Shown here in pieces: positions 10,156 to 41,817 of a stretch of DNA of 64,000 bases (its first letter is position 1; every line of letters starts with the position of its first letter). The notes beneath the pieces were generated by a model, which was not told where the DNA came from, searched no databases, and saw only the letters and a program-made list of their open reading frames with translations. The stretch comes from an uncultured Clostridia bacterium (GTDB lineage Bacteria; Bacillota; Clostridia; TANB77; CAG-508): NCBI GenBank assembly GCA_963557965.1, contig CAUWEX010000004.1:649-64648 (forward strand). Reading direction: 5' to 3'. A program made the position numbers and the translations under genes.

Positions 10156-10229
10156 AAAGTAAAACATACTCAATTAAATTTTAAGAAAAACGATAATTTA
10201 AAAGTGAAAAGGTAAGAAGGGAGAATATA

Positions 10230-28001: not shown

Positions 28002-28181
28002 TAAGAAAAATCGATGTAAGTAGCTTGTATCTGAGGATACAGGCTACTTTAACGTTTGGTAACTAATAAATTTATTGTATAATTTCTAATATTTATTTTT
28101 CACTAGAGCCACAAGGGATTTCACGATTTTTAATTTTTATTAATTTTTTGTAGTAAAAACTGTTCACTCAACAAAAATTGA
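27989..28181 (+). repeat. attL-side direct repeat (tRNA 3' end plus ~180 bp downstream)
   Basis: ttcatccgcaccataagaaaaatcgatgtaa...cactcaacaaaaattga recurs at 41625-41817 with only a handful of substitutions. Confidence 0.9.
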
Positions 28182-28311
28182 CTATTTTGTACATGTAAAC
28201 TACAGAGTATAGTTGTTTGAAAAAACGTTGAGTGAAATCTCTGAAGTGCAGTAGAATAAATGATTTTAGCGGTTGGAGTTGTTGAGTGAACGTGTAATAT
28301 TATTTAATTTT

Positions 28312-29526
28312 TTATAATTCTTTTTCACTTTCTGCTAATTGTTTTGGCTGATTTAAAGCTAAATTTTCTCTTAAATAATATTGATTTACTTTATCAATTT
28401 CATTTTCCTTAAATTTATCAAAAACAGAAGTATATGTATTTAAAGTAATACTAATATCTTTATGCCCCATAAGTCTTTGAACTACAACGGGAGCCATACC
28501 GCTTTCAATACATCTTGTTCCGAAAGTATGTCTTAAACTATGAGTAGAAATATCAGTAATATTAAACTCTTTTTTCAATATTCTTTTTAGCTCATTATTA
28601 ACATTAGAACGTCTAACATATTTACAATTTAGAGGCTTAAATAACAACTTTTCATCATTGTTTATTTGGGTATTGGCAATTTGCATTTGCTCAACAATAT
28701 ATGGGTATAAAAAATCAGGAATAGGCAATATTCTTTTTCCAGCATATGTTTTAGTTTTATTACCCATTATAACATTTCCGATTTCATCGATTGATAAAGT
28801 TCTATGAACATTGATCTTTTTATGTTGCAAATCAATATCATGAGTAGATAGGGCAAGAGCTTCACCGACACGCAACCCCATATACATTTGAATTAAAAAT
28901 ACATTTCTGTATTTATATTTATCTACAGGCTTATTAATTAACCAATGTGTGAAGTTTTGTTGTTCTTCTACTGTGAGTGCTCGAACAATTTTATCTTCCT
29001 TACTACTTTGAGGTCTAATAACATTAAGCATAGGATTTCTCATTATATAACCTTTATCCATTGCTATTTTAAAAGCTTGGTTTAATTGTTGATAAGCTTT
29101 TTTTATCATAGAATTACTTAGGTTATCTTTTAGAGAAGTTAGGTATGCTTGTAATTCTTCTGAAGTGATATCAGATATATTTTTATTACCAAAAGATGTT
29201 TTTTCTAAATTTTGAATTGTAATAAGAACCCTACCGTATTGAGAAGCAGATATTTGATTAGTATCTCTTTTTAAGTTTAAATTTTGTTTAAGAAGTTCAC
29301 ACATAGGTATTCCATGGTGTTCGATATATAATGCGTTTCCTTTTTGATACATAATTGTACTTAAATATTTTTTTGCTTCTTCCTCTGTTTTAAAACTTTT
29401 GGTTCGTCTTACGGTTTTTCCTTTGTTTACATCATATTCATAAAATTGTGCTAACCAATTTTTTCTTTGCTTATTAAAATATATAGAACCTTCACTACTT
29501 CCTTTAATAGGCATATTATACACCAC
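28312..29526 (-). CDS. int: Tyrosine-type site-specific recombinase/integrase
   Basis: C-terminal catalytic region LRVGEALAL, HSLRHTFGTRCIESG and LMGHKDISITLNTYTS (R..HxxR..Y). Confidence 0.92.
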   Translation of the reverse strand: MVYNMPIKGSSEGSIYFNKQRKNWLAQFYEYDVNKGKTVRRTKSFKTEEEAKKYLSTIMYQKGNALYIEHHGIPMCELLKQNLNLKRDTNQISASQYGRVLITIQNLEKTSFGNKNISDITSEELQAYLTSLKDNLSNSMIKKAYQQLNQAFKIAMDKGYIMRNPMLNVIRPQSSKEDKIVRALTVEEQQNFTHWLINKPVDKYKYRNVFLIQMYMGLRVGEALALSTHDIDLQHKKINVHRTLSIDEIGNVIMGNKTKTYAGKRILPIPDFLYPYIVEQMQIANTQINNDEKLLFKPLNCKYVRRSNVNNELKRILKKEFNITDISTHSLRHTFGTRCIESGMAPVVVQRLMGHKDISITLNTYTSVFDKFKENEIDKVNQYYLRENLALNQPKQLAESEKEL

Positions 29527-29785
29527 CTTTTCTATTCATTTTCCAAAGTAGATATGCTGCTAAAGTTATAGTTTTTCTTTTGCCAATATTAATACTTGGA
29601 AAATCTTGTTGTTTAAATAAGTCGTATGCCTGGTTTATTCCAATATGTAAATCTTTTGAAACATCTTGAACAGATAACATAGCAAAAGGGTTAGTTACTT
29701 TACTTAAATAATTTATAATAATTTGCTTACTTAAATTTGTATTATCTTGTGTATCAATTATATTTAAATTGTGTGTATTATTCAT
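29516..29785 (-). CDS. xis: Excisionase-type HTH DNA-binding protein (Xis-like)
   Basis: MLSVQDVSKDLHIGINQAYDLFKQQDFPSINIGKRKTITLAAYLLW fits the excisionase/HTH_17 pattern. The gene overlaps the int start. Confidence 0.7.
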   Translation of the reverse strand: MNNTHNLNIIDTQDNTNLSKQIIINYLSKVTNPFAMLSVQDVSKDLHIGINQAYDLFKQQDFPSINIGKRKTITLAAYLLWKMNRKGGV

Positions 29786-30359
29786 TTCTATTATCTCCGT
29801 TTCTATTAGATTTTAATAAATTAGCTAATATTAGTTCCAAATTAGAAAGAACATTAATTAGGCTTATTTCAAAATTATGATTATTAATATTTTTAAAATA
29901 ATTTTCTCTACTTCGACTTTCTTCAAAATCTCTTTCATATACTGATGAGACTTTTTGATTATTAGCTTGAGAAATATACAAAGTAGCTGAAGGGGGAAGA
30001 GGACTTTTATTTATTAAGTCTTTAGTAAACCATATAATATCTTCTTGTGATAACGAATTAAATTCACGTTCTTGAGGGTCAATATTTACGAGTATGAGAT
30101 CTCCTCTAATACTTCTAAAAGGCAGCACAATATTAGCTTTTCTATATTTCATTAATTTACTGTTATTACAAATTATATAAGAACCTTCATAAGGGATAAT
30201 ATCAAGATTTCTTTTTACAATTGCTTTTTTTAGAGTAGATATATTTTTTATAATTTTTACATGTGGAGTTTGACCAACTTTTTTATATATAACTCTAACA
30301 GGAAAGCTATTACGCGATTTATTAAGAAGTCGTGTAGATATTTCTTTTTTATTCATCAC
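29778..30359 (-). CDS. Hypothetical protein, DUF3846-like N-terminal domain
   Basis: VRVIYKKVGQTPHVKII...IICNNSKLMKYRKANIVLP...IRGDLILVNID...SLSQEDI resembles the DUF3846 pattern seen on conjugative/mobilizable elements. This is recalled from memory, not searched. Confidence 0.4.
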   Translation of the reverse strand: MMNKKEISTRLLNKSRNSFPVRVIYKKVGQTPHVKIIKNISTLKKAIVKRNLDIIPYEGSYIICNNSKLMKYRKANIVLPFRSIRGDLILVNIDPQEREFNSLSQEDIIWFTKDLINKSPLPPSATLYISQANNQKVSSVYERDFEESRSRENYFKNINNHNFEISLINVLSNLELILANLLKSNRNGDNRNE

Positions 30360-30763
30360 ATTTTACCACCTTGTTGTATTTTATTAGCTTTATATAAAAG
30401 TTCTAAGTTATGTTTAAAATGAGCTATACCTTTTGAACGTAATTTGATAACTTGGTTTTTAGATAATTGTAAGTTTTTACATATATCATTTAGCCTAAGA
30501 TTTTCTATATAAGAGAGATATAGTACTTTTCTTTCGATAAGTGGAACGATTTTCATTGCTAAATAATAAGTTTCATTTGTAAAGATATTTTCTAAATGAT
30601 TGATATTAACATCTGCATTATTTACTTTTTCCATTGAATTTTTATAATAGTTATTTTCTATCATCTGTACAATTGCTTCTGTTTCGAGAACTGTTTCAAC
30701 AATTGAATTAAATTCTTTTCTATCTTTTGTTGGTTGTACGTTTTTACTTTTTTGATTTTTCAT
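30356..30763 (-). CDS. Sigma-70 region-4-like small regulator (Tn916 Orf7-like)
   Basis: LSYIENLRLNDICKNLQLSKNQVIKLRSKGIAHFK is a region-4 HTH. The position upstream of xis-int matches Tn916-family regulatory modules. Confidence 0.6.
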   Translation of the reverse strand: MKNQKSKNVQPTKDRKEFNSIVETVLETEAIVQMIENNYYKNSMEKVNNADVNINHLENIFTNETYYLAMKIVPLIERKVLYLSYIENLRLNDICKNLQLSKNQVIKLRSKGIAHFKHNLELLYKANKIQQGGKM

Positions 30764-31102
30764 TTTCTAAAACCTCTTTTCTAAAATTTAGATTTCTAGA
30801 AATCTTTTTGTTGTTCGAACTGGCTATATAATAAACTAAATAACTGCTAAAATGTATTTTTGTAAGGTTTTTCACTAAAATGTATGAATTTGTAAGGAGA
30901 AGTAAGAGTTTGTAAGAACATGTAAGAAAACAAAGAAAATGTAAAGACTGGAAAGGTGCTAAAACAAGCATGGTGCAGCGATTTTTTTTAATGTTTTACG
31001 ACAAAAAATAAAAAATGCCTAAAACCTAGTCTATAACTAAGTTCTAAGCATTTTGGCTGTTAATGATATTATATAAATATTTGAAAGTATTATTGATATA
31101 TT

Positions 31103-31822
31103 TTATATATTTTCAAAATCATATGTATCTGTAATATCAAGATACAATATATTAGTTTTATTTAAGGTTTCTTTTTCTACATCAGTAATTTTTAGTTTTT
31201 CTAATAATTCGTCTGTAAATGCTATATCATCTTTTGATAGAATACATTTTCTAATACTAGGCACATATTCGCCATTGGTACAATGGAAAGTTCCTAACAT
31301 TAATTTATTAGTACCATCAACTATATTTACTATAAGATGTGAAAGTTCAAAACGTAAGTTGTTTTCTTTGTGATTTTCAAAAACAAATGTTGCTATGTGG
31401 TGGTCCGCTTGTAAGTATCCTGATAGATAAATGAAGTCTGTTTTATAGTCTAAAAAATCTACTTTGCACATATCAGGCTTTTGTGTGAGTTTTAATTTGA
31501 AGCGTGCTTTTGCATATTTCTTTGATTTTGGGTAATATGCGATATAGTATAAATAAAGCATATCAGTTTCAAATGGGTTTATACTAGTTTCACTATTATT
31601 AATTTTTCTTTGACTATTAAAAAGTTCATATTCATAAATTCCTAATGTATCACATATTAGAGAAATGTGTTCAGCATTTGGAATAATTTCGCCATTTTCA
31701 TATCTAGCAATTGTAGCTGTAGTTTTTCCAATAGCCATTGCTAGATTTTCTTGACTAAGCCCTTTGAGCTTTCGATACTTTTTAATATTTTGACCAAAAT
31801 CTTTACTATTAAAACAAGACAT
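31103..31822 (-). CDS. XRE-family HTH transcriptional regulator with C-terminal uncharacterised domain
   Basis: N-terminal IKKYRKLKGLSQENLAMAIGKTTATIARYENGEIIP is a Cro/C1-type HTH. Confidence 0.85.
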   Translation of the reverse strand: MSCFNSKDFGQNIKKYRKLKGLSQENLAMAIGKTTATIARYENGEIIPNAEHISLICDTLGIYEYELFNSQRKINNSETSINPFETDMLYLYYIAYYPKSKKYAKARFKLKLTQKPDMCKVDFLDYKTDFIYLSGYLQADHHIATFVFENHKENNLRFELSHLIVNIVDGTNKLMLGTFHCTNGEYVPSIRKCILSKDDIAFTDELLEKLKITDVEKETLNKTNILYLDITDTYDFENI

Positions 31823-31888
31823 AAGATCACCTCATAAATAAGTTATAATAATATTATAACACAGGTAGACATAACATTACAATAAAAA

Positions 31889-31917
31889 TTGAAATATTTA
31901 CCATAATATGGTATAAT
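31889..31917 (+). promoter_or_regulatory. Near-consensus sigma-A promoter with extended -10 (TTGAAA-17-TGgTATAAT), divergent from the XRE regulator
   Basis: TTGAAA 31889-31894, 17-nt spacer ending in TGG, TATAAT 31912-31917. A hairpin terminator GGGAGAAA/TTTCTCCC at 32167-32186 lies ~255 nt downstream. Confidence 0.6.
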
Positions 31918-32323
31918 TAAATTACTATATAGTAAAAGGAATGGCAAAAGCTGTTTTACAAGTTGCAATACTTGTGTTCAATAATGATTTGAAGTTCAAG
32001 AATTGCAACTGCTCGTACACCTCGAGATATGCTAAACTTTGTTATCTTCTCTTAATCATAATTGGATTTTTGCTTATAGAATATAAGAGAGAGGAGAGTA
32101 ACAGATGGAACATGAATTTTGTATTGGTGGACGGAAGCCCAGGAGCTTAAGCCGTTCGACAGTAAAGGGAGAAATAATTTTCTCCCAATATTTTTGTGAT
32201 AAGTAATTAGATAAAATTTAATCAATTACTTGTTTTTTAGTAGGATATATAGTATAGTAGAATTTATAGGAAATGAGAATAAGCAGATGTGGTTTGCCTC
32301 CTACATAAGAGGAGGTGAGGCGT

Positions 32324-32446
32324 ATGGTAGAAGTACAAGTATTATTATTAATAATTAAATTACTTTTTGCTGGTCTAGTATCAGTAACTATCATTGCGTT
32401 TGCCTTGATTATAGCAATAGTTGTAATTATTAGCAAACAAAAATAA
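32324..32446 (+). CDS. Type I toxin-like hydrophobic peptide (40 aa), not in the ORF track
   Basis: MVEVQVLLLIIKLLFAGLVSVTIIAFALIIAIVVIISKQK. Strong SD AGGAGG (32310-32315) is paired with upstream CCTCCT (32297-32302) in a 6-bp hairpin. Promoter TTGTTT-17-TATAGT at 32230-32258. Confidence 0.5.
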   Translation: MVEVQVLLLIIKLLFAGLVSVTIIAFALIIAIVVIISKQK

Positions 32447-32524
32447 CCAATAAAAAAACACATCTGTAACTTGTGAAGTGCACCCAAAAAATTAGACAAA
32501 AAATCTAATTTTGGAGGTGCATTT

Positions 32525-33052
32525 TTGATGTCAAAAAAAATATATACAACAGACATTAAATTACAAGTAGTAAAATATGTCGTTGATGAGAAACATTCAA
32601 TAGGTGAAGCAGTTGAACATTTTAAAATTCCTTATCAATCAATGAGAATGTGGATAAAACACTACGAGCATATTGGTATAACGGGATTATCCATAAAAAA
32701 TGAAAAATATACTGGTGCTTTTAAGGTTTCTGTAGTAAAATATATGTATGAAAATAAATTATCTTTAGTTGCAACAGCAGTACATTTTTCAATACCAGAC
32801 CATACTATTGTAAGAGCTTGGAAAAAAATATATGATAATAAGGGACCTATGTATCTACTGCAAGAGCAACGAGGAAGGTCTAAAAAAAGTAAAATGAAAT
32901 CAAAAAAAGTGAAGAAGATTAAAGAGGAAAATAACTTAACAGAAAAAGAATTATTGAAAAGAATACAATATTTAGAAACGGAGAATGCTTACTTAAAAAA
33001 ATTGAATGCCTTAATTCAAGAGAAGGAAAAATCAAAGAAAGAGATAAAGTAA
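32525..33052 (+). CDS. IS3-family transposase OrfA (HTH plus leucine zipper)
   Basis: HTH N-terminus and a C-terminal heptad region LLKRIQYLETENAYLKKLNALIQEKE. Slippery heptamer A AAA AAA at 32995-33001. Confidence 0.9.
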   Translation: MMSKKIYTTDIKLQVVKYVVDEKHSIGEAVEHFKIPYQSMRMWIKHYEHIGITGLSIKNEKYTGAFKVSVVKYMYENKLSLVATAVHFSIPDHTIVRAWKKIYDNKGPMYLLQEQRGRSKKSKMKSKKVKKIKEENNLTEKELLKRIQYLETENAYLKKLNALIQEKEKSKKEIK

Positions 33053-33084
33053 AGACCATCAATGAATTAAGGCAAAAATATAAT

Positions 33085-33906
33085 TTGATGGTATTATTAA
33101 AAATTGCTGGAGTAACTAGAAGTACATTCTATTATCATTTGAATCGAATGAAAGAACCGGATAAATATAAAGAAATTAAAGAAGAAATAAAAACAATATT
33201 TTTCGAGAATAAAGGAAGATATGGATATAGAAGAATATTATTAGAATTAAGAAATAGAGGATTTAATATAAATCATAAAACAGTATTAAGGTTGATGAAA
33301 GAATTAGGTTTAAAGAGTATTCAAAGACCTAAAAGGAGATATAATTCATATAAAGGAACCATAGGAAAAATAGCTGACAATATTCTAAATAGGAATTTTA
33401 ATGCAGAAAAGCCTAATGAAAAATGGGTTACTGATGTAACAGAGTTTAAGATAAATAATGAAAAACTTTATTTATCACCTATTATTGATTTATTTAATGG
33501 AGAGGTAATAAGTTATAATCTTTCACGACATCCTGTATTTCAACAAGTAGTTGATATGATAGAAAAGGCATTTAAAAAAATACCTGACAATACAAACCTA
33601 ATCCTACATTCAGACCAAGGTTGGCAATATCAAATGAAACAATATCAGAATATGCTTCAAGAAAAAGGTGTTAGACAAAGTATGTCAAGAAAAGGAACTT
33701 GTTTAGATAATAGCTTAGCAGAGAATTTTTTTGGAATATTAAAATCAGAATTGTACTATGTTAAAGAAAAAGAGTACAATAGTGTAGAAGAATTAGAAAA
33801 AGATATAATAGAATATATAGAGTATTATAATAATAGGAGAATAAAGAGTAAACTAAAAGGAATGACTCCTGTTCAATACAGAATTCATTCCCAAAATGTT
33901 GCTTAA
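33085..33906 (+). CDS. IS3-family transposase OrfB (DDE/rve catalytic domain), expressed as an OrfAB -1 frameshift fusion
   Basis: WVTDVTEF...HSDQGWQY...DNSLAENFFGILKSE is the DDE(K) pattern. The -1 frame is open from the slippery site (KKIECLNSREGKIKERDKVKTINELRQKYNL) into this ORF. Confidence 0.9.
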   Translation: MMVLLKIAGVTRSTFYYHLNRMKEPDKYKEIKEEIKTIFFENKGRYGYRRILLELRNRGFNINHKTVLRLMKELGLKSIQRPKRRYNSYKGTIGKIADNILNRNFNAEKPNEKWVTDVTEFKINNEKLYLSPIIDLFNGEVISYNLSRHPVFQQVVDMIEKAFKKIPDNTNLILHSDQGWQYQMKQYQNMLQEKGVRQSMSRKGTCLDNSLAENFFGILKSELYYVKEKEYNSVEELEKDIIEYIEYYNNRRIKSKLKGMTPVQYRIHSQNVA

Positions 33907-33947
33907 TACTAAATCAAAAAAATGTCCAATTTTTTGGGTTCAGTACA

Positions 33948-34012
33948 CTTGGCGGTTCAATGTGTTTTTTTAACATATAACTGGCAAACCACTTTGTGGT
34001 TTCTCCATTTCC
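33948..34012 (-). ncRNA. Candidate antitoxin sRNA, convergent to the type I toxin, driven by a perfect consensus promoter
   Basis: Minus-strand TTGACA (34043-34048), 17-nt spacer, TATAAT (34020-34025). The predicted RNA ggaaauggagAAACCACaaaGUGGUUUgcc... runs toward the split terminator. GGAG-AAACCAC is complementary to GUGGUUUgcCUCC in the toxin 5' UTR (32288-32300). Confidence 0.35.
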
Positions 34013-34281
34013 TATCTTTATTATATACAACTTTTTTATTATTGTCAAATAATATTCAAATTATATTTTTGTGTTACGTAAAACGTAATATTTTGTAATT
34101 TTAATATATTGTTATGGTATTTTAACTAAATTATAAAAAATAATATAAAAATGAACCTAAAAATTTGCACAAGAGGCAAAAACTATTGCATCTTATGCAA
34201 ATTTATTAATTTTGAAAAATATATGTAAACCTGTTATATTCATAATACTAAAATATAGGTAAATTGAATATACTATAGGGG

Positions 34282-34638
34282 ATGTTAAAATTGGAAACAA
34301 CAATAGTAATTTATAATATAATAAGAAAACTAGGAATAATACCTACACTAAAGGGGAGTAAGTTATTAGTAAAAGCAATTGAAATTCTAATAGCTAATGA
34401 AAATGAATTTATTGTTTTTGAGGATTTATATAAAATAATAGCCATGCATTATAGCCACTCTAATAGTGTACAAATTAGAAATGCAATTAAATATGCAATA
34501 GATAATAGAGATGAAAACAAAGCGATTACAAATTTTGAAAAGATTTTTGGTTATGAATATAGCCCATATTATTTTACTAATAAAACTATAATAGAAGAAA
34601 TTGCAAGAATAATAAGAATAGGGGATATTCTTACTTAG
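34282..34638 (+). CDS. Stand-alone Spo0A C-terminal (DNA-binding effector) domain protein, no receiver domain
   Basis: IIRKLGIIPTLKGSKLLVKAIEILI...LYKIIAMHY...VQIRNAIKYAI...FEKIFGY...TNKTIIEEIARII follows the Spo0A_C pattern (GVP.HlKGy.YL..AI, LY..IA, RAIRHAI, LFGY, TNSEFIA). Confidence 0.7.
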   Translation: MLKLETTIVIYNIIRKLGIIPTLKGSKLLVKAIEILIANENEFIVFEDLYKIIAMHYSHSNSVQIRNAIKYAIDNRDENKAITNFEKIFGYEYSPYYFTNKTIIEEIARIIRIGDILT

Positions 34639-34751
34639 AATTTTTTATATAATGTACTAAAAAAGAAATAATCGAAAAATGTTGACAAATTTGAAAGGCT
34701 TGTATAAAATAAATATGTAAAAAAAAAGAAACAAAAGAGGATGAATAAAAA

Positions 34752-34880
34752 ATGAAAGAAACAACTGATGCAAGCCTTGTGGCTGTAAGAGAGAGAGAGA
34801 GAGAGAGCTATACTTTACTAAATCAAAGAATAGCTTTAAAAATAGATGTTTTAAAAAGGATAGCAATAGAACCTGAATAA
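34752..34880 (+). CDS. Hypothetical 42-aa ORF containing an (AG)10 microsatellite, with its own promoter and terminator
   Basis: Promoter TTGACA 34682-34687, 17-nt spacer, TAAAAT 34705-34710. RBS AGAGGA. MKETTDASLVAVRERERESYTLLNQRIALKIDVLKRIAIEPE. Terminator aacctgaataaatcaggttttt. Coding status is uncertain. Confidence 0.3.
   Translation: MKETTDASLVAVRERERESYTLLNQRIALKIDVLKRIAIEPE
34788..34807 (+). repeat. (AG)10 dinucleotide microsatellite
   Basis: agagagagagagagagagag read directly. It is the only long dinucleotide tract I noticed in the window. Confidence 0.95.
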
Positions 34881-35035
34881 ATCAGGTTTTTGTTGCTGTC
34901 TTTTTTCGTGAGAAAAAACAAGTTAGTGAGTAGCAATGCTAAAAAGTAGAGTTCAAGCTAAAACTTATTTTCTCATATAAAATAGTTATTAAATTTTTAA
35001 ATTTTAAAATATAAAAAAATAAAGGAGGAAAAAAC

Positions 35036-36265
35036 ATGAAAGAAAAATTAAAAGGAAGGAAAGGTATTACACTAATTGCGTTAGTAATAACACTAATCGT
35101 GTTATTAATTTTAGCGGGTGTATCTATAGCAATGCTAACAGGAGAAAATGGAATATTAACACAAGCAACAAGTGCAAAAGAAAAAACAGAAAAGGCGGGA
35201 ATAATAGAAAGGGCACAAACAGACTTATTAGGACAACAAGTAAAAACAACAGATGGACAAGTAACTAAACCAATGTTAAAGGCAGTACTGGATACATATT
35301 TTAGTGATGTACCTGAAGCAGATGCAATAGAGTTAAGTACAGAACTAACATCTAAAGAAGGAAATTATAAAATACAAGTATCAGAAATTTATAATGGAAC
35401 ATTTGGAACAGGGGAAAAGCCAACAGGAGGAATATCAAGTTCAGAAATAGCAAATGCAGCAGATAAAAGCGAATATTATGGAGCGATAGTAAATGGGTAT
35501 GAACTACCAAGTGGAACAAATACAGATGTAAAATGGAAAATATTTTACGCAGATGAAAGTAATATTTATTTAATAGCAGATAATTATGTAGAAAAAGTAA
35601 ATTTACCAAATAGTACAACAGAAGCAGGGGTAACGATAGAGGGAGCAAACCACAAGCCAAATGATGGAAATAGCAGTTATCCGAGAGCAGCATATTTTAG
35701 TAATATACTAGGAGATTATGCCGGTTCAGCAAGGATAACAGACAGAAAATTAAAAGCATTAAATAATAGCTATTTTAATGAAAATAATTTTACAAGTACA
35801 AATAATAATATGAAATCAGTAGCATATATGATGGATACAAACGCTTGGAACAGTAAATTTAAAGATGTAAATAATAAGGCAGAATATGTAATTGGTGGAC
35901 CAACAGTAGAAATGTTAATGAAATCATATAGTCAAAAACATGGAGTAGATTATCAAGCAAGGGCAGAAAATGCTACAGGATATAAAATAAGTAACGATGG
36001 AGGAACAAGCTGGGAATATTATTATTCAGGAATGTTAGATACAAGTGATAGCTTATATGTAATAAGCTCACAGAGCGATGCTTATGGAATGTGGGTGGCT
36101 AGTCCCTCTGCCGATGGCGCTGCCTATGTAATGAGTGTGCGCTGCAGCGGCGGTGTGATCTATAGCAGCTATATCAATGACTACTATGGGTTCCGTCCGC
36201 TAGTTTCTCTAAAATCTGATGTCCAACTTCAAAAAAATGAAGACGGAACATATACAATACTATAA
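35036..36265 (+). CDS. DGR target protein: pilin-like N-terminus plus C-terminal C-type-lectin-fold (DUF1566/FGE-like) variable domain
   Basis: MKEKLKGRKG-ITLIALVITLIVLLILAGVSIAML N-terminus. C-terminus WVASPSADGAAYVMSVRCSGGVIYSSYINDYYGFRPLVSL is encoded by the VR, which matches the TR. Confidence 0.9.
   Translation: MKEKLKGRKGITLIALVITLIVLLILAGVSIAMLTGENGILTQATSAKEKTEKAGIIERAQTDLLGQQVKTTDGQVTKPMLKAVLDTYFSDVPEADAIELSTELTSKEGNYKIQVSEIYNGTFGTGEKPTGGISSSEIANAADKSEYYGAIVNGYELPSGTNTDVKWKIFYADESNIYLIADNYVEKVNLPNSTTEAGVTIEGANHKPNDGNSSYPRAAYFSNILGDYAGSARITDRKLKALNNSYFNENNFTSTNNNMKSVAYMMDTNAWNSKFKDVNNKAEYVIGGPTVEMLMKSYSQKHGVDYQARAENATGYKISNDGGTSWEYYYSGMLDTSDSLYVISSQSDAYGMWVASPSADGAAYVMSVRCSGGVIYSSYINDYYGFRPLVSLKSDVQLQKNEDGTYTIL
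36092..36208 (+). other. DGR variable region (VR)
   Basis: 117 nt colinear with TR 37167-37283. There are 22 differences, every one at a TR adenine, plus one C/T difference near the 3' edge after the GC-rich gggttccgtccgctag block. Confidence 0.93.
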
Positions 36266-36338
36266 GATGGGCGAAAAAATAAAAAATAAAGAATAGTGGG
36301 AACAGGCCTAGTGTCTGTTGCCACTAAAGGGGTTATAA

Positions 36339-36788
36339 ATGAGTGTTATAAGTATGGCAAGAGATATAAAAAAGGTTCATCCAAATGATACTGTAATGTA
36401 TAAGGTGGGAAACTTTGTACAAGCATTTGGAAAGGATGCATATGTATTATCTTATATATTCGACTATAAATTGAGAAATACCAAAGATAATATCCAAACA
36501 TGCGGATTTCCTAAAAATGCTATACCAAAAGTTATGAGCAAATTAGAACAAAAGAAGGTTAATTATATCATTATAGATACAAGGAATAATTATGAAGTTG
36601 ATGAAACTTTTGACAATAAAAATTTAAATAGTTATGAAGAAACAAGTAAAAAAGCTCAAAAGTATATAAAAATAAAGAAAAGAATTCAAAAAATAGAAGA
36701 AGAGCTGGTTGCTAATATGGATAGTATAAAAATAATGGATAAGATAAGAAAGATAGAAGAAATCGTATATGAAAACAGAAAAGTTTAA
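36339..36788 (+). CDS. DGR accessory protein with MutS domain-I-like (mismatch-binding-like) fold, MSL type
   Basis: YKVGNFVQAFGKDAYVLSYIFDYKL...TCGFPKNAIPKVMSKLEQKKVNYIIID parallels MutS domain I (GDFYELFxxDA...GVP...Y...L...GxKVAIcEQ). The Phe-x-Glu motif reads F-V-Q. Coiled-coil tail. Confidence 0.6.
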   Translation: MSVISMARDIKKVHPNDTVMYKVGNFVQAFGKDAYVLSYIFDYKLRNTKDNIQTCGFPKNAIPKVMSKLEQKKVNYIIIDTRNNYEVDETFDNKNLNSYEETSKKAQKYIKIKKRIQKIEEELVANMDSIKIMDKIRKIEEIVYENRKV

Positions 36789-37116
36789 AGTAATCCAATT
36801 TATTAGGGAATTATTAATTATTATAGATAAAAACATGGATAATTTTCCTAAAAAAGATATCGAATTAAAAAATCGAATAAGAAGTAACACATATGACCTA
36901 TTAGAGATTGCATATGAAGCTAATAGCATAGAAGATGTTAATATAAAAAATCAGCTATTAAATAAAATGATAGCAAAAATAAAAGTAATAGATTTCTTAC
37001 TAAATTTAACATATGACAAACAAATTATAACGGAAAAGAAATATTATAAACTTGGAAACAAACTTGATGATATAATAAAATATATCACTGGCTGGAAAAA
37101 TGCACTTAAAAAATAG
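36769..37116 (+). CDS. avd: DGR accessory variability determinant (Avd; four-helix bundle, 23S rRNA IVS protein family)
   Basis: 115 aa; NMDNFPKKDIELKNRIRSNTYDLLEIAYEAN...KYYKLGNKLDDIIKYITGWKNAL fits the Avd pattern. Lies immediately upstream of the TR. Confidence 0.8.
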   Translation: MKTEKFKVIQFIRELLIIIDKNMDNFPKKDIELKNRIRSNTYDLLEIAYEANSIEDVNIKNQLLNKMIAKIKVIDFLLNLTYDKQIITEKKYYKLGNKLDDIIKYITGWKNALKK

Positions 37117-37166
37117 GGTATGGTTGAATGCGTGAAAGCTCATTGCGTTTGAGGTTCGTTTTTGTT

Positions 37167-37283
37167 TGGGTGGCTAGTCCCTCTGCCAATAACACTAACA
37201 ATGTAATGAATGTGAACTACAACGGCAATGTGAACAATAACAACTATAACAATAACAACAATGGGTTCCGTCCGCTAGCTTCT
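37167..37283 (+). other. DGR template region (TR), AAY-codon rich
   Basis: tgggtggctagtccctctgcc aat aac act aac aat gta atg aat gtg aac tac aac ggc aat gtg aac aat aac aac tat aac aat aac aac aat gggttccgtccgctagcttct. Same strand as the VR. Confidence 0.93.
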
Positions 37284-37446
37284 AAAAAACTGTGGTTATA
37301 TCTACTATGGTAGAATAAGAGAAGGTTTAGATAGAAACAAACCATGTCCATTAGTTAAGACATTAACTATAAAATATAAAATAGATAATTAAATTTGTTA
37401 GTAGGTATTATTATATTCGAAAGGGAACTTAATTTAGAACTGTTTT

Positions 37447-37476
37447 AAGTAGTACATTTGATTGTACTACTTTTTT
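37447..37476. terminator. Bidirectional hairpin terminator shared by the TR transcript (+) and the RT gene (-)
   Basis: aagtagtaca tttgat tgtactactt is a perfect 10-bp stem followed by a T run. The RT stop codon (37467-37469) lies inside the stem. Confidence 0.75.
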
Positions 37477-38432
37477 AACGTAAATAAATTATTTCTATTG
37501 GATAAACTTTGATAACACCTTAAGCTAGAAATAAAACTTCCAAGAGGAATTTTATTACTTTTATATAATTTATATCTACTCTTTAATTTTCGTTTGACAT
37601 TTCTATATCTAGCATATTGAAAATTAGAATTTCGACCTAAAAATAAAAAATTATTAGTATTTTTATATATCCTGGTTTTTATATTTAATTCTAGTTTTTC
37701 TTTTTCTAAAAAATTTGTGATTTCAGATAAGCAATATTTCAAATAGTCTTTTGAAGGATGAAACAACAAAAAATCGTCTTGGTAACGCACATAATATTTA
37801 ATCTTTAGAGTTTCTTTTATAAAATGGTCTAAATCGTTCAAATAAAATATAGCTAAAATTTGACTAGTCATAGAACCAATAAATAGACCTTCAGTATTGC
37901 TATCAATAATATCAAATACAATTTTGATTGCATCTTTATCTTTTATTCTTCTTAATAGTTTTTTCTTTAAAATATCATGATTAATATTAGAAAAAAATTT
38001 ACTAATATCACATTTTAGAATATAGTATGAACCATATTTAATTTTACATTTTTTATGAAAAGAAGCTGCTAATTCTAGGCCCTTACTAGTTCCCATATCT
38101 TTTCTACTAGCTACATTAACGTCAAGTAAACAAGGTAAAATTGCAGGATATAAAATGTATCTTGCTACTAAGTGATTAACAATTTTATCTTGTACATTTT
38201 GACTTACAATTAATCTTTTTTTGGGTTCGTAAATAATGAATTTATTATATGGTCCTATTTTATATTGTTTGTTTTTTAATATTTCATGAATTCGTGAGAT
38301 ATAAATTGATTTATATTCTTTTAAATTTTCTACTCTTCTTTCATTGCGTGTATTTTTGCAAACTTCATTATAAGCAGAAATAATATTATTAAAATTATAG
38401 ATATTAGAATATAAATTTCCTTTTCTTTTCAT
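37467..38432 (-). CDS. DGR reverse transcriptase
   Basis: RT motifs including LFIGSMTSQILAIFYLN (DGR-type [I/L]GxxxSQ) and YVRYQDDFLLF (YxDD). 321 aa. Adjacent to the TR but on the opposite strand. Confidence 0.9.
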   Translation of the reverse strand: MKRKGNLYSNIYNFNNIISAYNEVCKNTRNERRVENLKEYKSIYISRIHEILKNKQYKIGPYNKFIIYEPKKRLIVSQNVQDKIVNHLVARYILYPAILPCLLDVNVASRKDMGTSKGLELAASFHKKCKIKYGSYYILKCDISKFFSNINHDILKKKLLRRIKDKDAIKIVFDIIDSNTEGLFIGSMTSQILAIFYLNDLDHFIKETLKIKYYVRYQDDFLLFHPSKDYLKYCLSEITNFLEKEKLELNIKTRIYKNTNNFLFLGRNSNFQYARYRNVKRKLKSRYKLYKSNKIPLGSFISSLRCYQSLSNRNNLFTLKK

Positions 38433-38505
38433 ATGTAACTCCTATAGAACTAATTTACAACTTTAAATATATAACATTATATGTAAGATATTAACAGCTA
38501 ATATC

Positions 38506-38534
38506 ATTATAAGATAGTTAGATATAATATGCAA
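38506..38534 (-). promoter_or_regulatory. Sigma-A promoter for the RT gene (TTGCAT-17-TATAAT on the minus strand)
   Basis: Reverse complement reads cTTGCATattatatctaactatctTATAATg. AGGAG RBS precedes the RT ATG. Confidence 0.6.
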
Positions 38535-38641
38535 GACAAATGGCAAAAATTGTTAAACAATAAATTTACGATAATTAAAGAATGTTAAATAATTAATAAA
38601 ATTATAGTAATTTAACGTAAAAATGTGTTATAATAGTAGAA

Positions 38642-38734
38642 CCACATCCAATAACAAAAGCAGATTATGAGAATAATTCGAACCCTTTTGTACAAGAAGT
38701 AATGAATACGGGAATTGAACTAAAAGTAGCATGA
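38642..38734 (+). pseudogene. 3'-terminal remnant (31 codons) of a second MNT-type nucleotidyltransferase gene
   Basis: PHPITKADYENNSNPFVQEVMNTGIELKVA* parallels the C-terminus of the MNT at 41190-41516 (LPFSIEEYNEPKGIMEEILNTGIELKVA*). It is preceded directly by a copy of the promoter repeat (aaaatgtgttataat). Confidence 0.7.
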
Positions 38735-38775
38735 GAAACAAAAAAGACGACTAGCAATGCTAGCCATCTTTTTTG

Positions 38776-39705
38776 TTATCTATCGAAAGTTTTTATAAAA
38801 TTATCAACTAAAGATTTAAAAGTATGTATAGGAAAATTAAATAGGTGTTTTATAACTTCGAAAGTTTTATCAATATAATTCTTTAGGTTATGATTTTCCT
38901 GTTTTAAAGTAATATTTTCTTTTTGTAGATTTTCTACTTTATTTATAGCAAAATAGGCTTTGCTTAGTTGTAATTTTAATTTATTATTATTTTCAATTAA
39001 AGTTTGATTTTGCTTAAGTAATAAATGTGTATCTTGTGTAGGAATACATTGTTCTTGTTTATTTTGTAGTTCATATTTTATATTATCATAATTAGTAACT
39101 TGTTTTAATGTTTTTATTGGGATATGGACATTATCTTTAGTATTGCCGCGTTCTAAATCAAAACCATGTTCAATCATATAAGTATAAAAACTGTCTTGTA
39201 ATTTCCTATAACTGTCTTTGCCTTTCCAATATTGACTACAAGCAATTTTTTTAATAGGATTACCATTTTTATCTTTTGTATGAACAACTGGAACAAAAAC
39301 CAAGTGTAAATGTGGAGTGGTTTCATCCATGTGAACTTTGCTAGATAAAATATATTTTTCACCTAAATTTTTATAATTTGCAACAAAGTTATGAGCAGTT
39401 TGAAAATATCTTTTTGTTTCTTCTTCTCCAATACTTTTGAAAAAGTCGTTATCAGAAGTAATTATAAATTCACATACTACGTTTGTTGTTTTTATTATTC
39501 TTCCTTGTAAGTTATTTTCCTGTATTAATTTTTTTAGTGCATTTGAATATGTAGTGTTACACTGTTTAATTGAATAATTTTTTATTAAATTATTTTTACT
39601 AATATCTTTGTTTGAGTAATTAGTATTTTTTCTTTCGTTATGTTTATATAATCCTGCTAAATTATCTTTCTTATAATTAGCATTTCTAATAATAGCATAA
39701 CTCAT
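38776..39705 (-). CDS. mob: MobV-family (Pre/Mob) relaxase
   Basis: N-terminal MSYAIIRNANYKKDNLAGLYKHNERK and the HxDE...PHxH motif (VHMDETTPHLHLVFVPV). C-terminal coiled coil. Confidence 0.88.
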   Translation of the reverse strand: MSYAIIRNANYKKDNLAGLYKHNERKNTNYSNKDISKNNLIKNYSIKQCNTTYSNALKKLIQENNLQGRIIKTTNVVCEFIITSDNDFFKSIGEEETKRYFQTAHNFVANYKNLGEKYILSSKVHMDETTPHLHLVFVPVVHTKDKNGNPIKKIACSQYWKGKDSYRKLQDSFYTYMIEHGFDLERGNTKDNVHIPIKTLKQVTNYDNIKYELQNKQEQCIPTQDTHLLLKQNQTLIENNNKLKLQLSKAYFAINKVENLQKENITLKQENHNLKNYIDKTFEVIKHLFNFPIHTFKSLVDNFIKTFDR

Positions 39706-39808
39706 TTTTTTATTTTTCCTTTTCTATAGATTGCCTTCGAAGGCTTACTTAAATTAAAATACCCCATTTGATTTTCTTGAATAAACTTTTTTTAGTTTCT
39801 AACATACT

Positions 39809-39853
39809 AGAACGTCGCGGACGTTCTGTATGGTCAGGGAAAATACTTTTCCC
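39809..39853. promoter_or_regulatory. Candidate oriT: two adjacent GC-containing hairpins upstream of the relaxase gene
   Basis: AGAACGTC gcg GACGTTCT (39809-39827) and AGGGAAAA tac TTTTCCCT (39835-39853), in otherwise AT-rich DNA ~100 bp upstream of mob. Confidence 0.45.
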
Positions 39854-40007
39854 TAACAACCCTTTTTAGAAAGATAAATAATAAAATTCTTACGAAGTTT
39901 ATCAATTATCTTTCTTTGCACGATTAATATTTAATTTATTTCGCTTACGCTACATAAATAAAATATTTTAATCGTGTTATAAAAATATTCGCTTTTAAGC
40001 TCATATT

Positions 40008-40114
40008 TTTATAATTGATTTTGCAAGCTAAAGCTAGCAAAATTTGATAAGCATTTTCTTTGTGGTACGTAATTATTAATAATTTTTAGTAATTTATTTT
40101 AATTTTTTATAATT
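40008..40114 (+). repeat. Cassette-flanking repeat, copy R1 (longest), upstream of the ParE module
   Basis: tttataattgattttgcaagc...tttctttgtgg...attaataatttttagtaatttattttaattttttataatt. Shared with 40828-40903, partly with 41521-41565 and degenerately with 38586-38636. Confidence 0.8.
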
Positions 40115-40201
40115 ATTATTAATTTTTCAATAATAATAAAAAAATATGGCAATTTAAAATAAAAATGTGATATAATATATAACATAGGAGATGATGTTAT
40201 T

Positions 40202-40453
40202 ATGACAATGAAACAACAAGAATTGTATGATGTTATTGAAAGTTTACCAGAAGAACTTTCAATAAAAGCAATTGATTATATAGAATACCTAAAATTTACT
40301 TATTCATTTATTAAAGCTCCAAGCGACCTAATTGTAAAAGATGAAAAAGACTTATTAGTAAAACTACAAAAAGGTATAAAAGATACTGAAGAAGGGAAAG
40401 TATGTTCTGTTGAAGAAGCTTTTGCAGAAGTTAATGAAATCTTATTAGGTTAA
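40202..40453 (+). CDS. Type II antitoxin partner of ParE (family not assigned)
   Basis: 83-aa acidic protein immediately upstream of, and translationally adjacent to, the ParE-like toxin. Confidence 0.6.
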   Translation: MTMKQQELYDVIESLPEELSIKAIDYIEYLKFTYSFIKAPSDLIVKDEKDLLVKLQKGIKDTEEGKVCSVEEAFAEVNEILLG

Positions 40454-40470
40454 GATAGGAGGTTTTTATA

Positions 40471-40785
40471 TTGGACAAGTATAAAGTAGAATTATCAATA
40501 CAAGCAAAAAATGATTATAAAAGTATTATTCATTATATAAAGTATGAATTATTAGAACCTACTATTGCAGAAAAATATGCTAATCTAATAAGAAATGAGC
40601 TTACTTCTTTAGAATATCAACCTAGTAAATTTTCTATTATTGACCATAATGAGATTAAAAAATATCAGTTTAGAAAATTAGTTATGAAAAATTATATTGC
40701 GTTTTATCGTATTAATGATAAAGATAAGATAGTGAATGTTGAGAGAATTTTATATAATGCTAGTAATTGGATGGATAAATTATAA
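40471..40785 (+). CDS. parE: Type II toxin, ParE/RelE superfamily
   Basis: 104 aa; YKVELSIQAKNDYKSIIHYI...FRKLVMKNYIAFYRINDKDKIVNVERILYNASNW fits the ParE pattern. TTG start after AGGAGG. Confidence 0.75.
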   Translation: MDKYKVELSIQAKNDYKSIIHYIKYELLEPTIAEKYANLIRNELTSLEYQPSKFSIIDHNEIKKYQFRKLVMKNYIAFYRINDKDKIVNVERILYNASNWMDKL

Positions 40786-40827
40786 AAAATTTATGTTAAT
40801 TTTATAAAACTAAACAGTTAATTTAGC

Positions 40828-40903
40828 TTTATAATTGATTTTGCAAGCAATTTCTTTGTAGTTATTAATAATTTTTAGCAATTTATTTTAATTTTTTATA
40901 ATT
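40828..40903 (+). repeat. Cassette-flanking repeat, copy R2, abutting the truncated HEPN ORF
   Basis: tttataattgattttgcaagcaatttctttgtagttattaataatttttagcaatttattttaattttttataatt. It lacks the internal hairpin segment of R1. Confidence 0.8.
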
Positions 40904-40917
40904 TTTATCAATTTTTT

Positions 40918-41214
40918 ATGTGCCAACAAGCTATAGAAAAGTTAAGCAAAGGTATATACGTATATACTTTCGATAAAGAAGCACCATTTACTCATAATAT
41001 TAACGTTATTTTAAAAGATATCGATAAAGTTATAAATTCGATTGAGTATAAAAAATTTGAATCTTTATTTGCAACTTTAACATCATTTTATATAATAGGT
41101 AGATATGATGTATATAAACAAAAAATTTCAAAAGATTTAGATAATAAATCTAGCAAAGAATTATTAAATAAATCAAAGGAGGCGTTTGTATGGTTAAAGT
41201 CCCTTCAAACATAA
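40918..41214 (+). pseudogene. HEPN-domain protein (toxin of a HEPN/MNT pair), apparently N-terminally truncated at repeat R2 and lacking an RBS
   Basis: Begins CQQAIEKLSKGIYVY...THNINVIL...IIGRYDVY, i.e. mid-way through the usual first HEPN helices. No SD precedes the ATG (atcaattttttATG). Overlaps the MNT start. Confidence 0.55.
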
Positions 41215-41516
41215 TTAAATTAATTGAAAAATTTATTAAATTACTAAAAGAAGAAAATATAGTGGTTGAAAAAGTAATTCTATTTGGTTCTTATGCTAAG
41301 GGAACATATAGAGCAGATAGTGATATTGACTTGGCAATTGTCTCTCCTAACTTTAAGGAAGAAGATTGTATTGAAAATATGACATTTCTATTATGTAAGG
41401 CTAACATACTAAAGGCAGATATTCAAACTTTGCCTTTTAGTATAGAAGAATACAACGAACCTAAAGGGATAATGGAAGAAATTTTGAATACTGGAATAGA
41501 ACTTAAAGTTGCATAA
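41190..41516 (+). CDS. MNT-type nucleotidyltransferase (antitoxin of the HEPN/MNT type VII module)
   Basis: VILFGSYAKGTYRADSDIDLAIV is the GSxxxGxxxxxSDxD Pol-beta NTase motif. Confidence 0.85.
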   Translation: MVKVPSNIIKLIEKFIKLLKEENIVVEKVILFGSYAKGTYRADSDIDLAIVSPNFKEEDCIENMTFLLCKANILKADIQTLPFSIEEYNEPKGIMEEILNTGIELKVA

Positions 41517-41520
41517 GGCA

Positions 41521-41565
41521 ATATTAATTAGTATTAATTTTTAGTAATTTATTTTAACTTTTTTC
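41521..41565 (+). repeat. Cassette-flanking repeat, partial copy R3
   Basis: atattaattagtattaatttttagtaatttattttaactttttt matches the core of R1/R2. Confidence 0.7.
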
Positions 41566-41624
41566 GACAAAACGCTTAACTTAACAAGAATAGCTGAAAG
41601 TGTTAGAATAGGCGATATAGTTCA

Positions 41625-41817
41625 TTCATCCGCACCATAAGAAAAATCGATGTAAATAGCTTGTATCTAAGGATACAGGCTATTTTAACGTTTGGTAACT
41701 AATAAATTTATTATATAATTTAAAATATTTATTTTTCACTAGAGCCACAAAGGGTTTCACGATTTTTAATTTTTATTAATTTTTTGTAGTAAAAACTGTT
41801 CACTCAACAAAAATTGA
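41625..41817 (+). repeat. attR-side direct repeat (copy of the tRNA-Leu 3' end plus downstream 180 bp)
   Basis: Matches 27989-28181. Differences include a compensatory pair in the hairpin (aGtagc..gctaCt vs aAtagc..gctaTt). Confidence 0.9.

Follow-up and report, generated by a model that had tools for sequence, protein, structure and literature searches.

The prototype DGR, that of Bordetella phage BPP-1, is organised as mtd-avd-TR-Sp-brt. It comprises a target gene with a VR at its 3' end, avd, and an adenine-specific transfer of information from TR, and it carries a structured spacer downstream of TR. In its RNA, a duplex between the 3' end of avd and the spacer brackets TR, whereas a second duplex, between the 3' end of TR and the spacer, lies next to an adenosine. 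Departures from this layout were published later. 'Inverted' DGRs, in which RT is found on one strand, whereas TR, VR and the target lie on the opposite one, were published in 2012 (Schillinger et al., PMC3521204). Their group 4 (Shewanella baltica OS155, Vibrio sp. RC586 and Photobacterium angustum S14) is gammaproteobacterial, and was judged to stem from one inversion that horizontal transfer had then spread. MSL accessory genes, together with split-strand TR/RT arrangements, were published in 2017 (Wu et al., 2017, PMC5758913); in Architecture D of that work, the neighbour of avd encodes a small protein resembling MutS. Likewise, Msl is encoded beside avd in the Bfr, Bth and Bun DGRs of Bacteroides (bioRxiv 10.1101/2024.11.15.621889).

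The locus described here lies within a 64-kb window, i.e., the whole stretch of DNA that was analysed, from the low-GC genome of a gut Clostridia. While the BPP-1 DGR resides on a phage, the present cassette sits on a cellular, 13.6-kb integrative mobilizable island. Its best explanation, which we hold with good though not complete confidence, is a functional DGR of the 'inverted' type with an MSL accessory gene. The target gene with its VR, the MSL gene, avd and TR are on the + strand, whereas RT is on the - strand and convergent with TR, as an earlier note on this DNA had stated and as the coordinates of the ORF and of the TR/VR pair confirm; all other features listed in that note were also found where it had placed them (Table 1). 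The strand of RT opposite to TR, VR and target is shared with group 4, and the MutS-like protein of 149 aa, accompanied by avd, falls within the range of the MSL class (112-283 aa). HRDC was not seen. Like the prototype, the locus combines the elements enumerated above for BPP-1, avd being a very likely assignment and the two duplexes being predicted, and those of its RNA module correspond to the ones described by Handa et al. It differs from BPP-1 in the opposite strand of RT, in a terminator-like hairpin between the spacer and RT, and in the extra MSL gene. The architecture had been called unusual, and it is indeed rare, but it is not new considering the precedents of 2012 (PMC3521204) and 2017 (PMC5758913). 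The convergent layout is uncommon, yet previously described, and the locus is a well-documented further example, both the inverted RT and MSL having been catalogued earlier.

Table 1. Features of the DGR cassette (positions refer to the window)
Feature	Position	Strand	Remarks
Target (variable) protein gene	35036..36265	+	ORF, 409 aa; VR at 3' end
VR	36092..36208	+	ungapped match to TR
GC-rich hairpin between target stop and MSL start	36294..36327	+	-19.1 kcal/mol; ~86 nt after VR
MSL gene	36339..36788	+	149 aa; MutS domain I, then two C-terminal helices; overlaps avd start by 20 nt
avd	36769..37116	+	bAvd 4e-9, NCBIfam DivGenRetAVD 4e-10, both below curated cut-offs
Upstream RNA element ATAGGGTATGGTTG	37113..37126	+	spans avd stop codon; conserved in all layouts
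TR	37167-37283	+	ungapped match to VR
Spacer (Sp) RNA	37284..37446	+	~163 nt; 23-locus alignment, 39 invariant columns
Spacer hairpin 1	37296-37318	+	
Spacer invariant TAGAAACA	37332-37339	+	
Stop-duplex strand of spacer	37340-37349	+	
Spacer hairpin 2, then A-rich run	37352-37369	+	
Spacer long-range helix	37378-37384:37440-37446	+	
Intrinsic-terminator-like hairpin (37447-37472) and T-run	37447..37478	+	
DGR reverse transcriptase	37467..38432	-	321 aa; RVT_1 E=5.7e-16
Candidate RT promoter TTGCAT-17-TATAAT	38506..38534	-	sequence present only

TR and VR differ by 23 mismatches, 22 of them at TR adenines and one a C>T at 37279, such that 75 of the 76 non-A positions are identical. Counted by + strand base, the substitutions are 22 of A-type and 0 of T-type; since they fall at + strand adenines, the template RNA is of + sense. 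Nearly all TR adenines (39/41) fall at the first or second position of codons in the target frame, TR contains 10 in-frame AAC codons, and the distance from the end of VR to the target stop is 57 nt. No second VR was found within the 64-kb window. The target protein begins with a pilin-like hydrophobic segment (weak N_methyl match). Its homologs number at least 4665 at E<=1e-10, and DUF6273 is present in some. It gave no Pfam domain even at E<=10, and its AF2 model (pLDDT 72) no significant PDB match; a C-type-lectin-like variable domain is presumed. No T-run follows the GC-rich hairpin located between the target and MSL genes. Most related loci possess a comparable hairpin with compensatory changes 75-125 nt after VR, and this structure may correspond to the inverted repeat that other DGRs carry downstream of the IMH.

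The spacer, put forward by the earlier note as the candidate cis-priming RNA, proved to be conserved and to contain covarying helices. In the covariation test, 96% of cells were paired compared with 45-59% in slid controls, and 24 pairs exhibited double changes compared with 5-9; the observed value was reached in none of 500 shuffles. Two additional helices are predicted to connect the spacer with the borders of TR. Within the upstream element, GGGTATGGTT (37116-37125) pairs with AACCATGTCC of the spacer (37340-37349). This duplex is predicted in all 21 of 21 loci (-11 to -18 kcal/mol) with compensatory changes, and the element is kept even in a locus where TR follows RT. At the other border, the 3' end of TR, TTCTA (37280-37284), can pair with the invariant TAGAA of the spacer (37332-37336). 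The TTCT:AGAA core of this helix 2 is invariant, hence outside the reach of covariation, and the extra A:T pair was read from the sequence. The spacer has no sequence similarity to that of Bordetella BPP-1, and an Rfam search of positions 34600-38800 at a permissive threshold returned chance miRNA-type matches only, with no family for the spacer.

Immediately downstream lies a perfect 10-bp hairpin, AAGTAGTACA-TTTGAT-TGTACTACTT (-15.4 kcal/mol with its flanks, z = -3.85 versus shuffles). The 3' arm covers, in antisense, the final codons of RT as well as its stop codon, TAG (reverse complement of 37467-37469), whose location inside the hairpin had been correctly recognised. The end of the RT ORF overlaps the terminator element in 10 of 13 convergent relatives. 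Nevertheless, the hairpin is not a product of convergence, as hairpin and T-run occur at the same position in co-directional and RT-TR loci. On the RT strand the hairpin is not followed by a U-tract and is thus not evidently a terminator in both directions. The spacer, the terminator and the upstream motif recur in conserved form in each of the three RT layouts; they form covarying helices and fit the blueprint of the Bordetella DGR RNA. From this we infer that the hairpin likely terminates a TR-spacer RNA that is autonomous and that RT and Avd would act upon in trans. The same conclusion, that the mRNA for RT and the RNA serving as template need not be one transcript, applies to group 4 (PMC3521204). 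No terminator was predicted downstream of the stop codon in the RT transcript, and read-through of RT, possibly antisense to the spacer and TR, could be imagined to supply a template RNA of - sense from a single transcription unit comprising TR and RT. This is at odds with the exclusive occurrence of the adenine-type substitutions at + strand adenines, with the placement of these adenines in the first two codon positions of the + strand target, and with a conserved RNA structure and T-run terminator that are read on the + strand. Such an origin of the template is thus virtually ruled out, and an autonomous + strand TR-spacer RNA is the reading that we retain.

DGR-type RTs typically display [LIV]GxxxSQ in motif 4 along with YxDD. 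The RT encoded here has IGSMTSQ at residue 185 and YQDD at residue 217, and no paralog of it was found in the window. The sequence proposed earlier as its promoter is present, but without statistical support above shuffles. Its -35 box agrees at 3 of 6 bases, and promoter-like sites are not enriched in this AT-rich region (27 found, 27.8 expected from shuffles); the candidate is indistinguishable from chance in such DNA. The assignment of Avd is very likely given the E-values, the full-length match and the conserved synteny (at least 30 related loci), despite scores of 37.4 bits for bAvd (cut-off 40) and 39.9 for DivGenRetAVD (cut-off 80).

Forty-five related loci were found; TR/VR pairs were looked for with an adenine-tolerant diagonal scan. 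Classified by where the spacer lies and on which strand, 20 loci are convergent, 12 are co-directional and 2 are of the RT-TR type. The existence of co-directional relatives, together with frameshifted RTs in several others (L029, L034 and L038-L042), would be compatible with a recent and non-functional inversion of RT in a decaying DGR, a possibility that the earlier note had already considered. However, the closest relatives are convergent, this layout extends over loci with an RT identity of 54-90%, 14 of which also possess A-specific TR/VR pairs, and the RT ORF of the window is intact with its catalytic motifs. Moreover, near-identical contigs from other samples vary almost exclusively where an active DGR writes. 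A contig encoding an identical RT protein (L047) exhibits 21 differences from positions 35000-38600 of the window, all 21 in VR at TR-A positions. A second, near-identical contig (L048) exhibits 33 differences, of which 27 lie in VR at positions facing TR adenines; the remaining six include five that represent changes in TR and the copies of these in VR, the TR changes at 37261, 37262 and 37265 being copied to VR positions 36186, 36187 and 36190. Decay is refuted for practical purposes by this pattern, and these comparisons of contigs indicate that the DGR is currently active and that its VR is diversifying in nature.

RT alone is inverted between L018 and L028, and between L010 and L014, with collinear flanks in both pairs. 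In distance-based trees, convergent loci were monophyletic in 0 of 200 bootstraps, and the bootstrap support for more than one flip was moderate (62-72%). The phylogeny therefore suggests that the orientation of RT has probably been flipped in situ more than once, a change that the autonomy of the RNA module and the action of RT and Avd in trans would have made possible. In these respects the lineage differs from group 4: it belongs to gut Clostridia, carries MSL, comprises convergent, co-directional and RT-TR layouts, and probably underwent more than one flip. The two inverted pairs and the lack of monophyly, as well as the tyrosine integrase encoded by the same island, could also be taken as signs of a programmed, recombinase-driven inverton acting as an on/off switch or as an antisense tuning device of the DGR. 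Yet the search for inverted repeats flanking RT yielded only weak AT-rich chance pairs, and the att repeats belonging to the integrase lie at the ends of the island. Furthermore, the 23 contigs with an identical RT protein, representing three places, are all convergent, and the flips separate RTs that are only 64-73% identical, hence are evolutionary rather than population-level events. We consider an inverton very improbable and favour occasional flipping in situ over evolutionary time. Megablast of the cassette against plasmids gave no match; the spacer signature pattern had no match in viral contigs, thus providing no sign of a phage-borne lineage.

The additional gene upstream of avd was described in the earlier note as resembling MutS domain I with F-x-Q in place of F-x-E, a description borne out by Pfam, the AF2 model, Foldseek and the motif alignment. 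Residues 9-79 match positions 9-83 of the domain I profile (MutS_I, E=4.8e-9, above the gathering score), with the rest of MutS unmatched. HMM and structure together support a confident domain I fold: the AF2 model has a pLDDT of 90, and its top Foldseek matches are all domain I of MutS/MSH (E ~1e-5). The similarity to domain I of E. coli MutS (1E3M; E38Q mutant, 1WBD) has a Foldseek probability of 1.00, with an rmsd of 1-2.5 A over ~80 residues, and the GxF...DA motif with its invariant Phe is shared. Unlike MutS, MSL lacks the connector, core, clamp and ABC ATPase domain V, has a Gln instead of the Glu (G-N-F-V-Q-A-F, that is F-V-Q rather than Phe-x-Glu), and has gained two C-terminal helices. 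The Phe is invariant in 208 of 208 MSL homologs, while a Glu is found at the Glu position in only 13 of them and Q, H, N, K, Y or R in 94%. The pI of MSL is 9.39, compared with 7.2 +/- 1.7 for the 16 proteins of Architecture D (PMC5758913), a value that describes that class but does not define it. Another difference from Architecture D and from the Bacteroides DGRs is the presence of two MSL paralogs in some relatives: MSL-B overlaps the start of RT in two of them (L010 and L018), and in L006, L011, L026 and L034 it is located directly upstream of RT, on the RT strand. The overlap between the MSL and avd genes is conserved in relatives. As the earlier note stated, MSL genes have been surveyed (catalogued in 2017, PMC5758913) without a described function, and our literature search found no paper on the function of MSL.

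These observations lead us to propose the following mechanism. The + strand RNA module, consisting of the upstream element, TR, the spacer of ~163 nt, and the hairpin with its T-run, would be transcribed and end at its own terminator. RT would be produced from a separate - strand transcript, and RT and Avd would bind the RNA in trans. As in the RNP of the Bordetella phage, the duplexes formed by the upstream element with the spacer and by TTCTA with TAGAA would bracket TR; an adenosine of the invariant GAAACA would thereby come to lie just 3' of template position 37279 and act as the cis-primer. The adenine-mutagenized cDNA would then replace VR. The orientation of RT would be selectively neutral and flipped in situ, as the RNA module is autonomous and is already separated from RT by a terminator in co-directional relatives.

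Within this scheme, MSL would most likely bind the densely mismatched cDNA:VR heteroduplex and shield it from the host MutS, because it keeps the DNA-wedging Phe without the Glu and the ATPase domain. Host MutS was reported to restrict retrohoming 5-10 fold in Bacteroides (bioRxiv 10.1101/2024.11.15.621889). That MSL is a retroelement-encoded mismatch binder, having kept the Phe and lost the Glu and the ATPase, which hides the heteroduplex from host MutS, is a tentative proposal. If true, it would explain the all-or-none restriction of retrohoming by mismatch repair in Bacteroides, and the RNP would deliver an asymmetric dimer, similar to that of MutS, made up of the paralogs coupled to avd and to RT. 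Alternatively, MSL could belong to the RT-Avd-RNA particle as a structural or loading subunit rather than act as a shield against mismatch repair, and might for instance recognise non-standard pairs within the TR:spacer duplex or within the nascent RNA:cDNA hybrid; we grant this role no more than a modest likelihood. The overlap of MSL with avd, the overlap or close proximity of MSL-B and RT in several relatives, and the basic pI would fit an RNP-associated role equally well, and non-standard pairs are present in the Bordetella primer duplex. Conversely, MSL is missing from most DGRs, which function nonetheless (Wu et al., 2017, PMC5758913), domain I of MutS serves as a module for DNA mismatches, and retrohoming has been shown to be hindered by host MutS.

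The known picture of DGRs is unchanged by these findings. The lineage nonetheless constitutes a natural experiment in which the same DGR RNA module is combined with RT in three positions or orientations, with at least the convergent form being active. As such, it provides strong comparative evidence that the TR-spacer RNA is an independent unit and that the capture of template RNA by RT and Avd takes place in trans. It also offers a compact, AT-rich DGR RNA from a Firmicute, with mapped helices, for comparison with the cryo-EM structure from Bordetella. Finally, the signature of a large MSL family, an invariant Phe next to a dispensable Glu, gives rise to a specific and testable hypothesis on the function of MSL.

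The window holds a complete DGR (see the table), and the components that the earlier note had read from the sequence were confirmed as ORFs, TR/VR alignment and profile matches; the note's interpretation is supported as well, except for the role it gave to the hairpin and for the RT promoter. Of 23 mismatches between TR and VR, 22 affect TR adenines and the remaining one is a C>T change (37279), so that the two are identical at 75 of 76 non-adenine positions; no second VR was found within the 64-kb window. TR adenines occupy codon positions 1-2 in 39 of 41 cases, with ten in-frame AAC codons. A DGR structural type in which RT occupies one strand and the other carries TR, VR and target was described in 2012, when separate transcription of RT and template was already concluded (PMC3521204). 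MSL (MutS-domain-I-like) accessory genes were subsequently defined as Architecture D in 16 DGRs by Wu et al. (2017), who also reported that TR and RT may occupy different strands (PMC5758913), an arrangement with which myDGR copes (PMC6602519). The window DGR is a well-supported further example of known DGR types, and its novelty is limited. In the DGR literature compared, we found neither a conserved spacer RNA with its own terminator, as in this lineage, nor an in-situ, probably repeated, inversion of RT only, nor an MSL-wide signature in which Phe is kept and Glu lost, nor a second MSL paralog.

Features of the DGR and of the island that carries it
Feature	Position	Strand	Remarks
Island	27918-41655		inserted at tRNA-Leu (27918-28001)
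31-bp direct repeat TTCATCCGCACCATAAGAAAAATCGATGTAA	27989-28019 and 41625-41655		island boundaries
Tyrosine integrase	28312-29526	-	on island
HTH regulator			on island
IS3 element	32525-33906		on island
Spo0A_C-like gene	34282-34638		on island
Target ORF	35036-36265		409 aa; VR at 3' end
VR	36092-36208		3' end of target ORF; aligns with TR without gaps
MSL ORF	36339-36788	+	between target and TR; Pfam MutS_I, E=4.8e-9, above gathering score
avd ORF	36769-37116		between target and TR; bAvd 4e-9 and NCBIfam DGR Avd 4e-10, both scoring below curated cut-offs
Upstream RNA motif ATAGGGTATGGTTG	37113-37126		14 nt; spans avd stop codon
TR	37167-37283		aligns with VR without gaps
Hairpin	37447-37472		perfect 10-bp stem, 6-nt loop; z = -3.85 with flanks
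RT	37467-38432	-	RVT_1 5.7e-16; motifs IGSMTSQ and YQDD
MobV relaxase	38776-39705	-	on island
Two toxin-antitoxin pairs			ParE; HEPN/nucleotidyltransferase; on island

A ~13.6-kb island inserted at tRNA-Leu carries the DGR and looks like an integrative mobilizable element; in other relatives, the DGR cassette lies in differing chromosomal neighbourhoods. The target belongs to a very large family, which at E<=1e-10 comprises at least 4665 proteins, many of them alone in their cluster. The invariant N-terminus of this family, GITLIALVIT...LILAG, resembles a prepilin signal but lacks Glu5; the protein body matched neither a Pfam domain nor a PDB fold. A GC-rich hairpin without T-run (36294-36327, -19.1 kcal/mol) lies past the target stop and ahead of the MSL start, ~86 nt 3' of VR, and most related loci have a similar one, with compensatory stem changes, 75-125 nt past VR. 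It may be the counterpart of an inverted repeat that other DGRs have downstream of the IMH as an aid to target recognition, although that repeat is far closer to VR. The target start is preceded, at a distance of ~325 nt, by the best sigma-70-like match of the region, TTGACA-17-TAAAAT (11/12, 34682-34710); past this match, at 34752-34915, comes a 42-codon ORF that has a GAGAGAGAGAGAGAGAG run together with a stem-loop region. Together they may form the leader of the + strand operon. The promoter proposed for RT in the earlier note is present as sequence, yet is indistinguishable from chance in this AT-rich DNA.

An RT-protein scan retaining one genome per species recovered 46 loci, nearly all in gut Clostridia MAGs, and layouts were assigned from where, and on which strand, the conserved spacer 3' of TR lies. 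In 20 loci, target-MSL-avd-TR-spacer faces the 3' end of RT (convergent), as in the window; 12 are co-directional, and in two the TR-spacer lies downstream of RT. Besides the window, 14 convergent relatives yielded adenine-specific TR/VR pairs. An RT protein identical to that of the window is also encoded on contigs from other samples, always in a convergent neighbourhood. One such contig (L047) differs from the window over 3601 bp at 21 positions, all 21 in VR opposite TR adenines. Another (L048) has 27 such VR differences, and its three TR substitutions (37261, 37262 and 37265) are mirrored at VR 36186, 36187 and 36190. These differences are direct evidence that, in the convergent layout, TR is transferred to VR with adenine mutagenesis. 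Co-directional relatives do exist, but a recent non-functional inversion, as the earlier note had envisaged, is practically ruled out by the 20 convergent loci, the adenine-specific pairs and the VR diversification of L047 and L048. The adenines at which TR and VR differ lie on the + strand (22 A, 0 T); the template RNA is therefore of + sense and cannot belong to the RT transcript.

All three layouts share ~163 nt past TR, the hairpin with its T-run and the 14-nt motif over the avd stop codon, which is kept even in L020, where TR follows RT instead of avd. Within this motif, GGGTATGGTT (37116-37125) and spacer AACCATGTCC (37340-37349) are predicted to pair in 21 of 21 loci tested (-11 to -18 kcal/mol), and their duplex shows compensatory changes. 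In a covariation count on a 21-locus alignment to whose spacer we had artificially joined the upstream element, and with a structure derived by RNAalifold from that very alignment, 96% of cells were paired vs 45-59% with partners slid, 24 pairs vs 5-9 had changed on both sides, and none of 500 shuffles attained the observed values. AGAA within the invariant spacer TAGAAACA (37332-37339) can pair with TTCT at the 3' end of TR, in a helix that shows no variation and hence no covariation. In Bordetella bRT-Avd-RNA, as resolved by cryo-EM (bioRxiv 10.1101/2023.10.23.563531), a stem-loop lies right past TR (here 37296-37318), a TR:spacer primer duplex ends at an adenosine and the avd 3' end pairs with the spacer (counterparts of both were mapped here), and a further stem-loop (here 37352-37369) precedes an A-rich run. 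The TR-spacer RNA matched no Rfam family. Near its 3' end, avd contains an extended -10-like TGaTATAAT (37068-37076), ~40 nt ahead of the upstream element, as a possible internal promoter for this RNA; it is partly kept in relatives, and the Avd coding sequence (LDDIIKY) alone may account for this conservation. One relative, L006, carries at least five spacer-like copies on both strands (9235-12378), 2-6 kb from RT (nine nhmmer matches, mostly half-length), alternating with ORFs that by eye resemble Rpn/PD-(D/E)XK-type putative transposases; either this DGR region was rearranged or the spacer was duplicated along with putative transposase elements.

The hairpin on which both transcription units were said to converge does contain the RT stop codon TAG in its 3' arm, but its role has to be reassigned. 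Because hairpin and T-run also separate spacer from RT in co-directional relatives, we interpret it as the terminator of the TR-spacer RNA and not as something that convergence brought about; AAAACAG comes next on the RT strand, so it is not an evident terminator of the RT mRNA. The last RT codons are antisense to the terminator in the window and in 10 of 13 convergent relatives.

RT orientation appears to have changed in situ, as tblastx comparisons of L018 with L028 and L010 with L014 show collinear flanks with RT alone inverted. In a neighbour-joining tree of RT proteins (200 bootstrap replicates), convergent loci were never monophyletic (0/200), L014/L015 were nested among convergent loci in 72% of replicates, and L018/L026 paired with co-directional L028/L032 in 62%; these groupings make more than one flip likely, with moderate support. 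A programmed switch of RT orientation is disfavoured, as no inverted repeats flanking RT were found and contigs that share the identical RT did not differ in its orientation. The flips would instead be evolutionary inversions, tolerated because the RNA module is autonomous.

The likeness of the accessory gene to MutS domain I was borne out. Its AlphaFold model (28 homologs, pLDDT 90) comprises a beta-alpha domain and, C-terminal to it, two helices (99-125 and 132-145); the best PDB matches by Foldseek all belong to MutS/MSH domain I (E about 1e-5; ~80 residues superposed at rmsd 1-2.5 A), and a profile search of PDB sequences returned solely MutS/MSH6 at E<=0.1, with 1WBD, the E38Q mutant of E. 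coli MutS, among the best. The family spans 1292 representative clusters at E<=1e-3, and MSL has no ATPase domain. In MutS, the Glu of the Phe-x-Glu motif discriminates mismatches and authorises repair. Among 208 MSL homologs with a locatable motif, Phe is invariant while the Glu position varies (Q 56, H 47, N 40, K 17, Y 16, E 13, R 12, S 4, D 2, L 1), so MSL retains the wedge residue but not the Glu.

Some relatives, unlike the window, encode a second MutS_I paralog, MSL-B (E=5e-13; ~140 aa, motif GIFFI/GIFYI, e.g. L010:5582-6004 and L018:1345-1776). It lies directly upstream of RT on the same strand in convergent L006, L010, L011, L018, L026 and L034, overlapping the RT start in L010 and L018, and downstream of RT on the opposite strand in co-directional L014, L028 and L032. 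Divergently upstream of MSL-B-RT is a conserved 114-120-aa ORF (L010:5055-5417, L018:850-1194 and L026:3628-3948, all on the - strand), absent from the window and without family match, which may regulate this operon.

Our literature search found no paper on MSL function. With the 20-nt overlap of MSL with avd, and that of MSL-B with the RT start, an RNP-associated role would agree almost as well as the shielding role that we prefer. In Bacteroides, host MutS cuts retrohoming 5-10 fold in an all-or-none manner (bioRxiv 10.1101/2024.11.15.621889). The reading that we prefer is that MSL would bind the mismatched cDNA:VR heteroduplex and thereby shield it from MutS.
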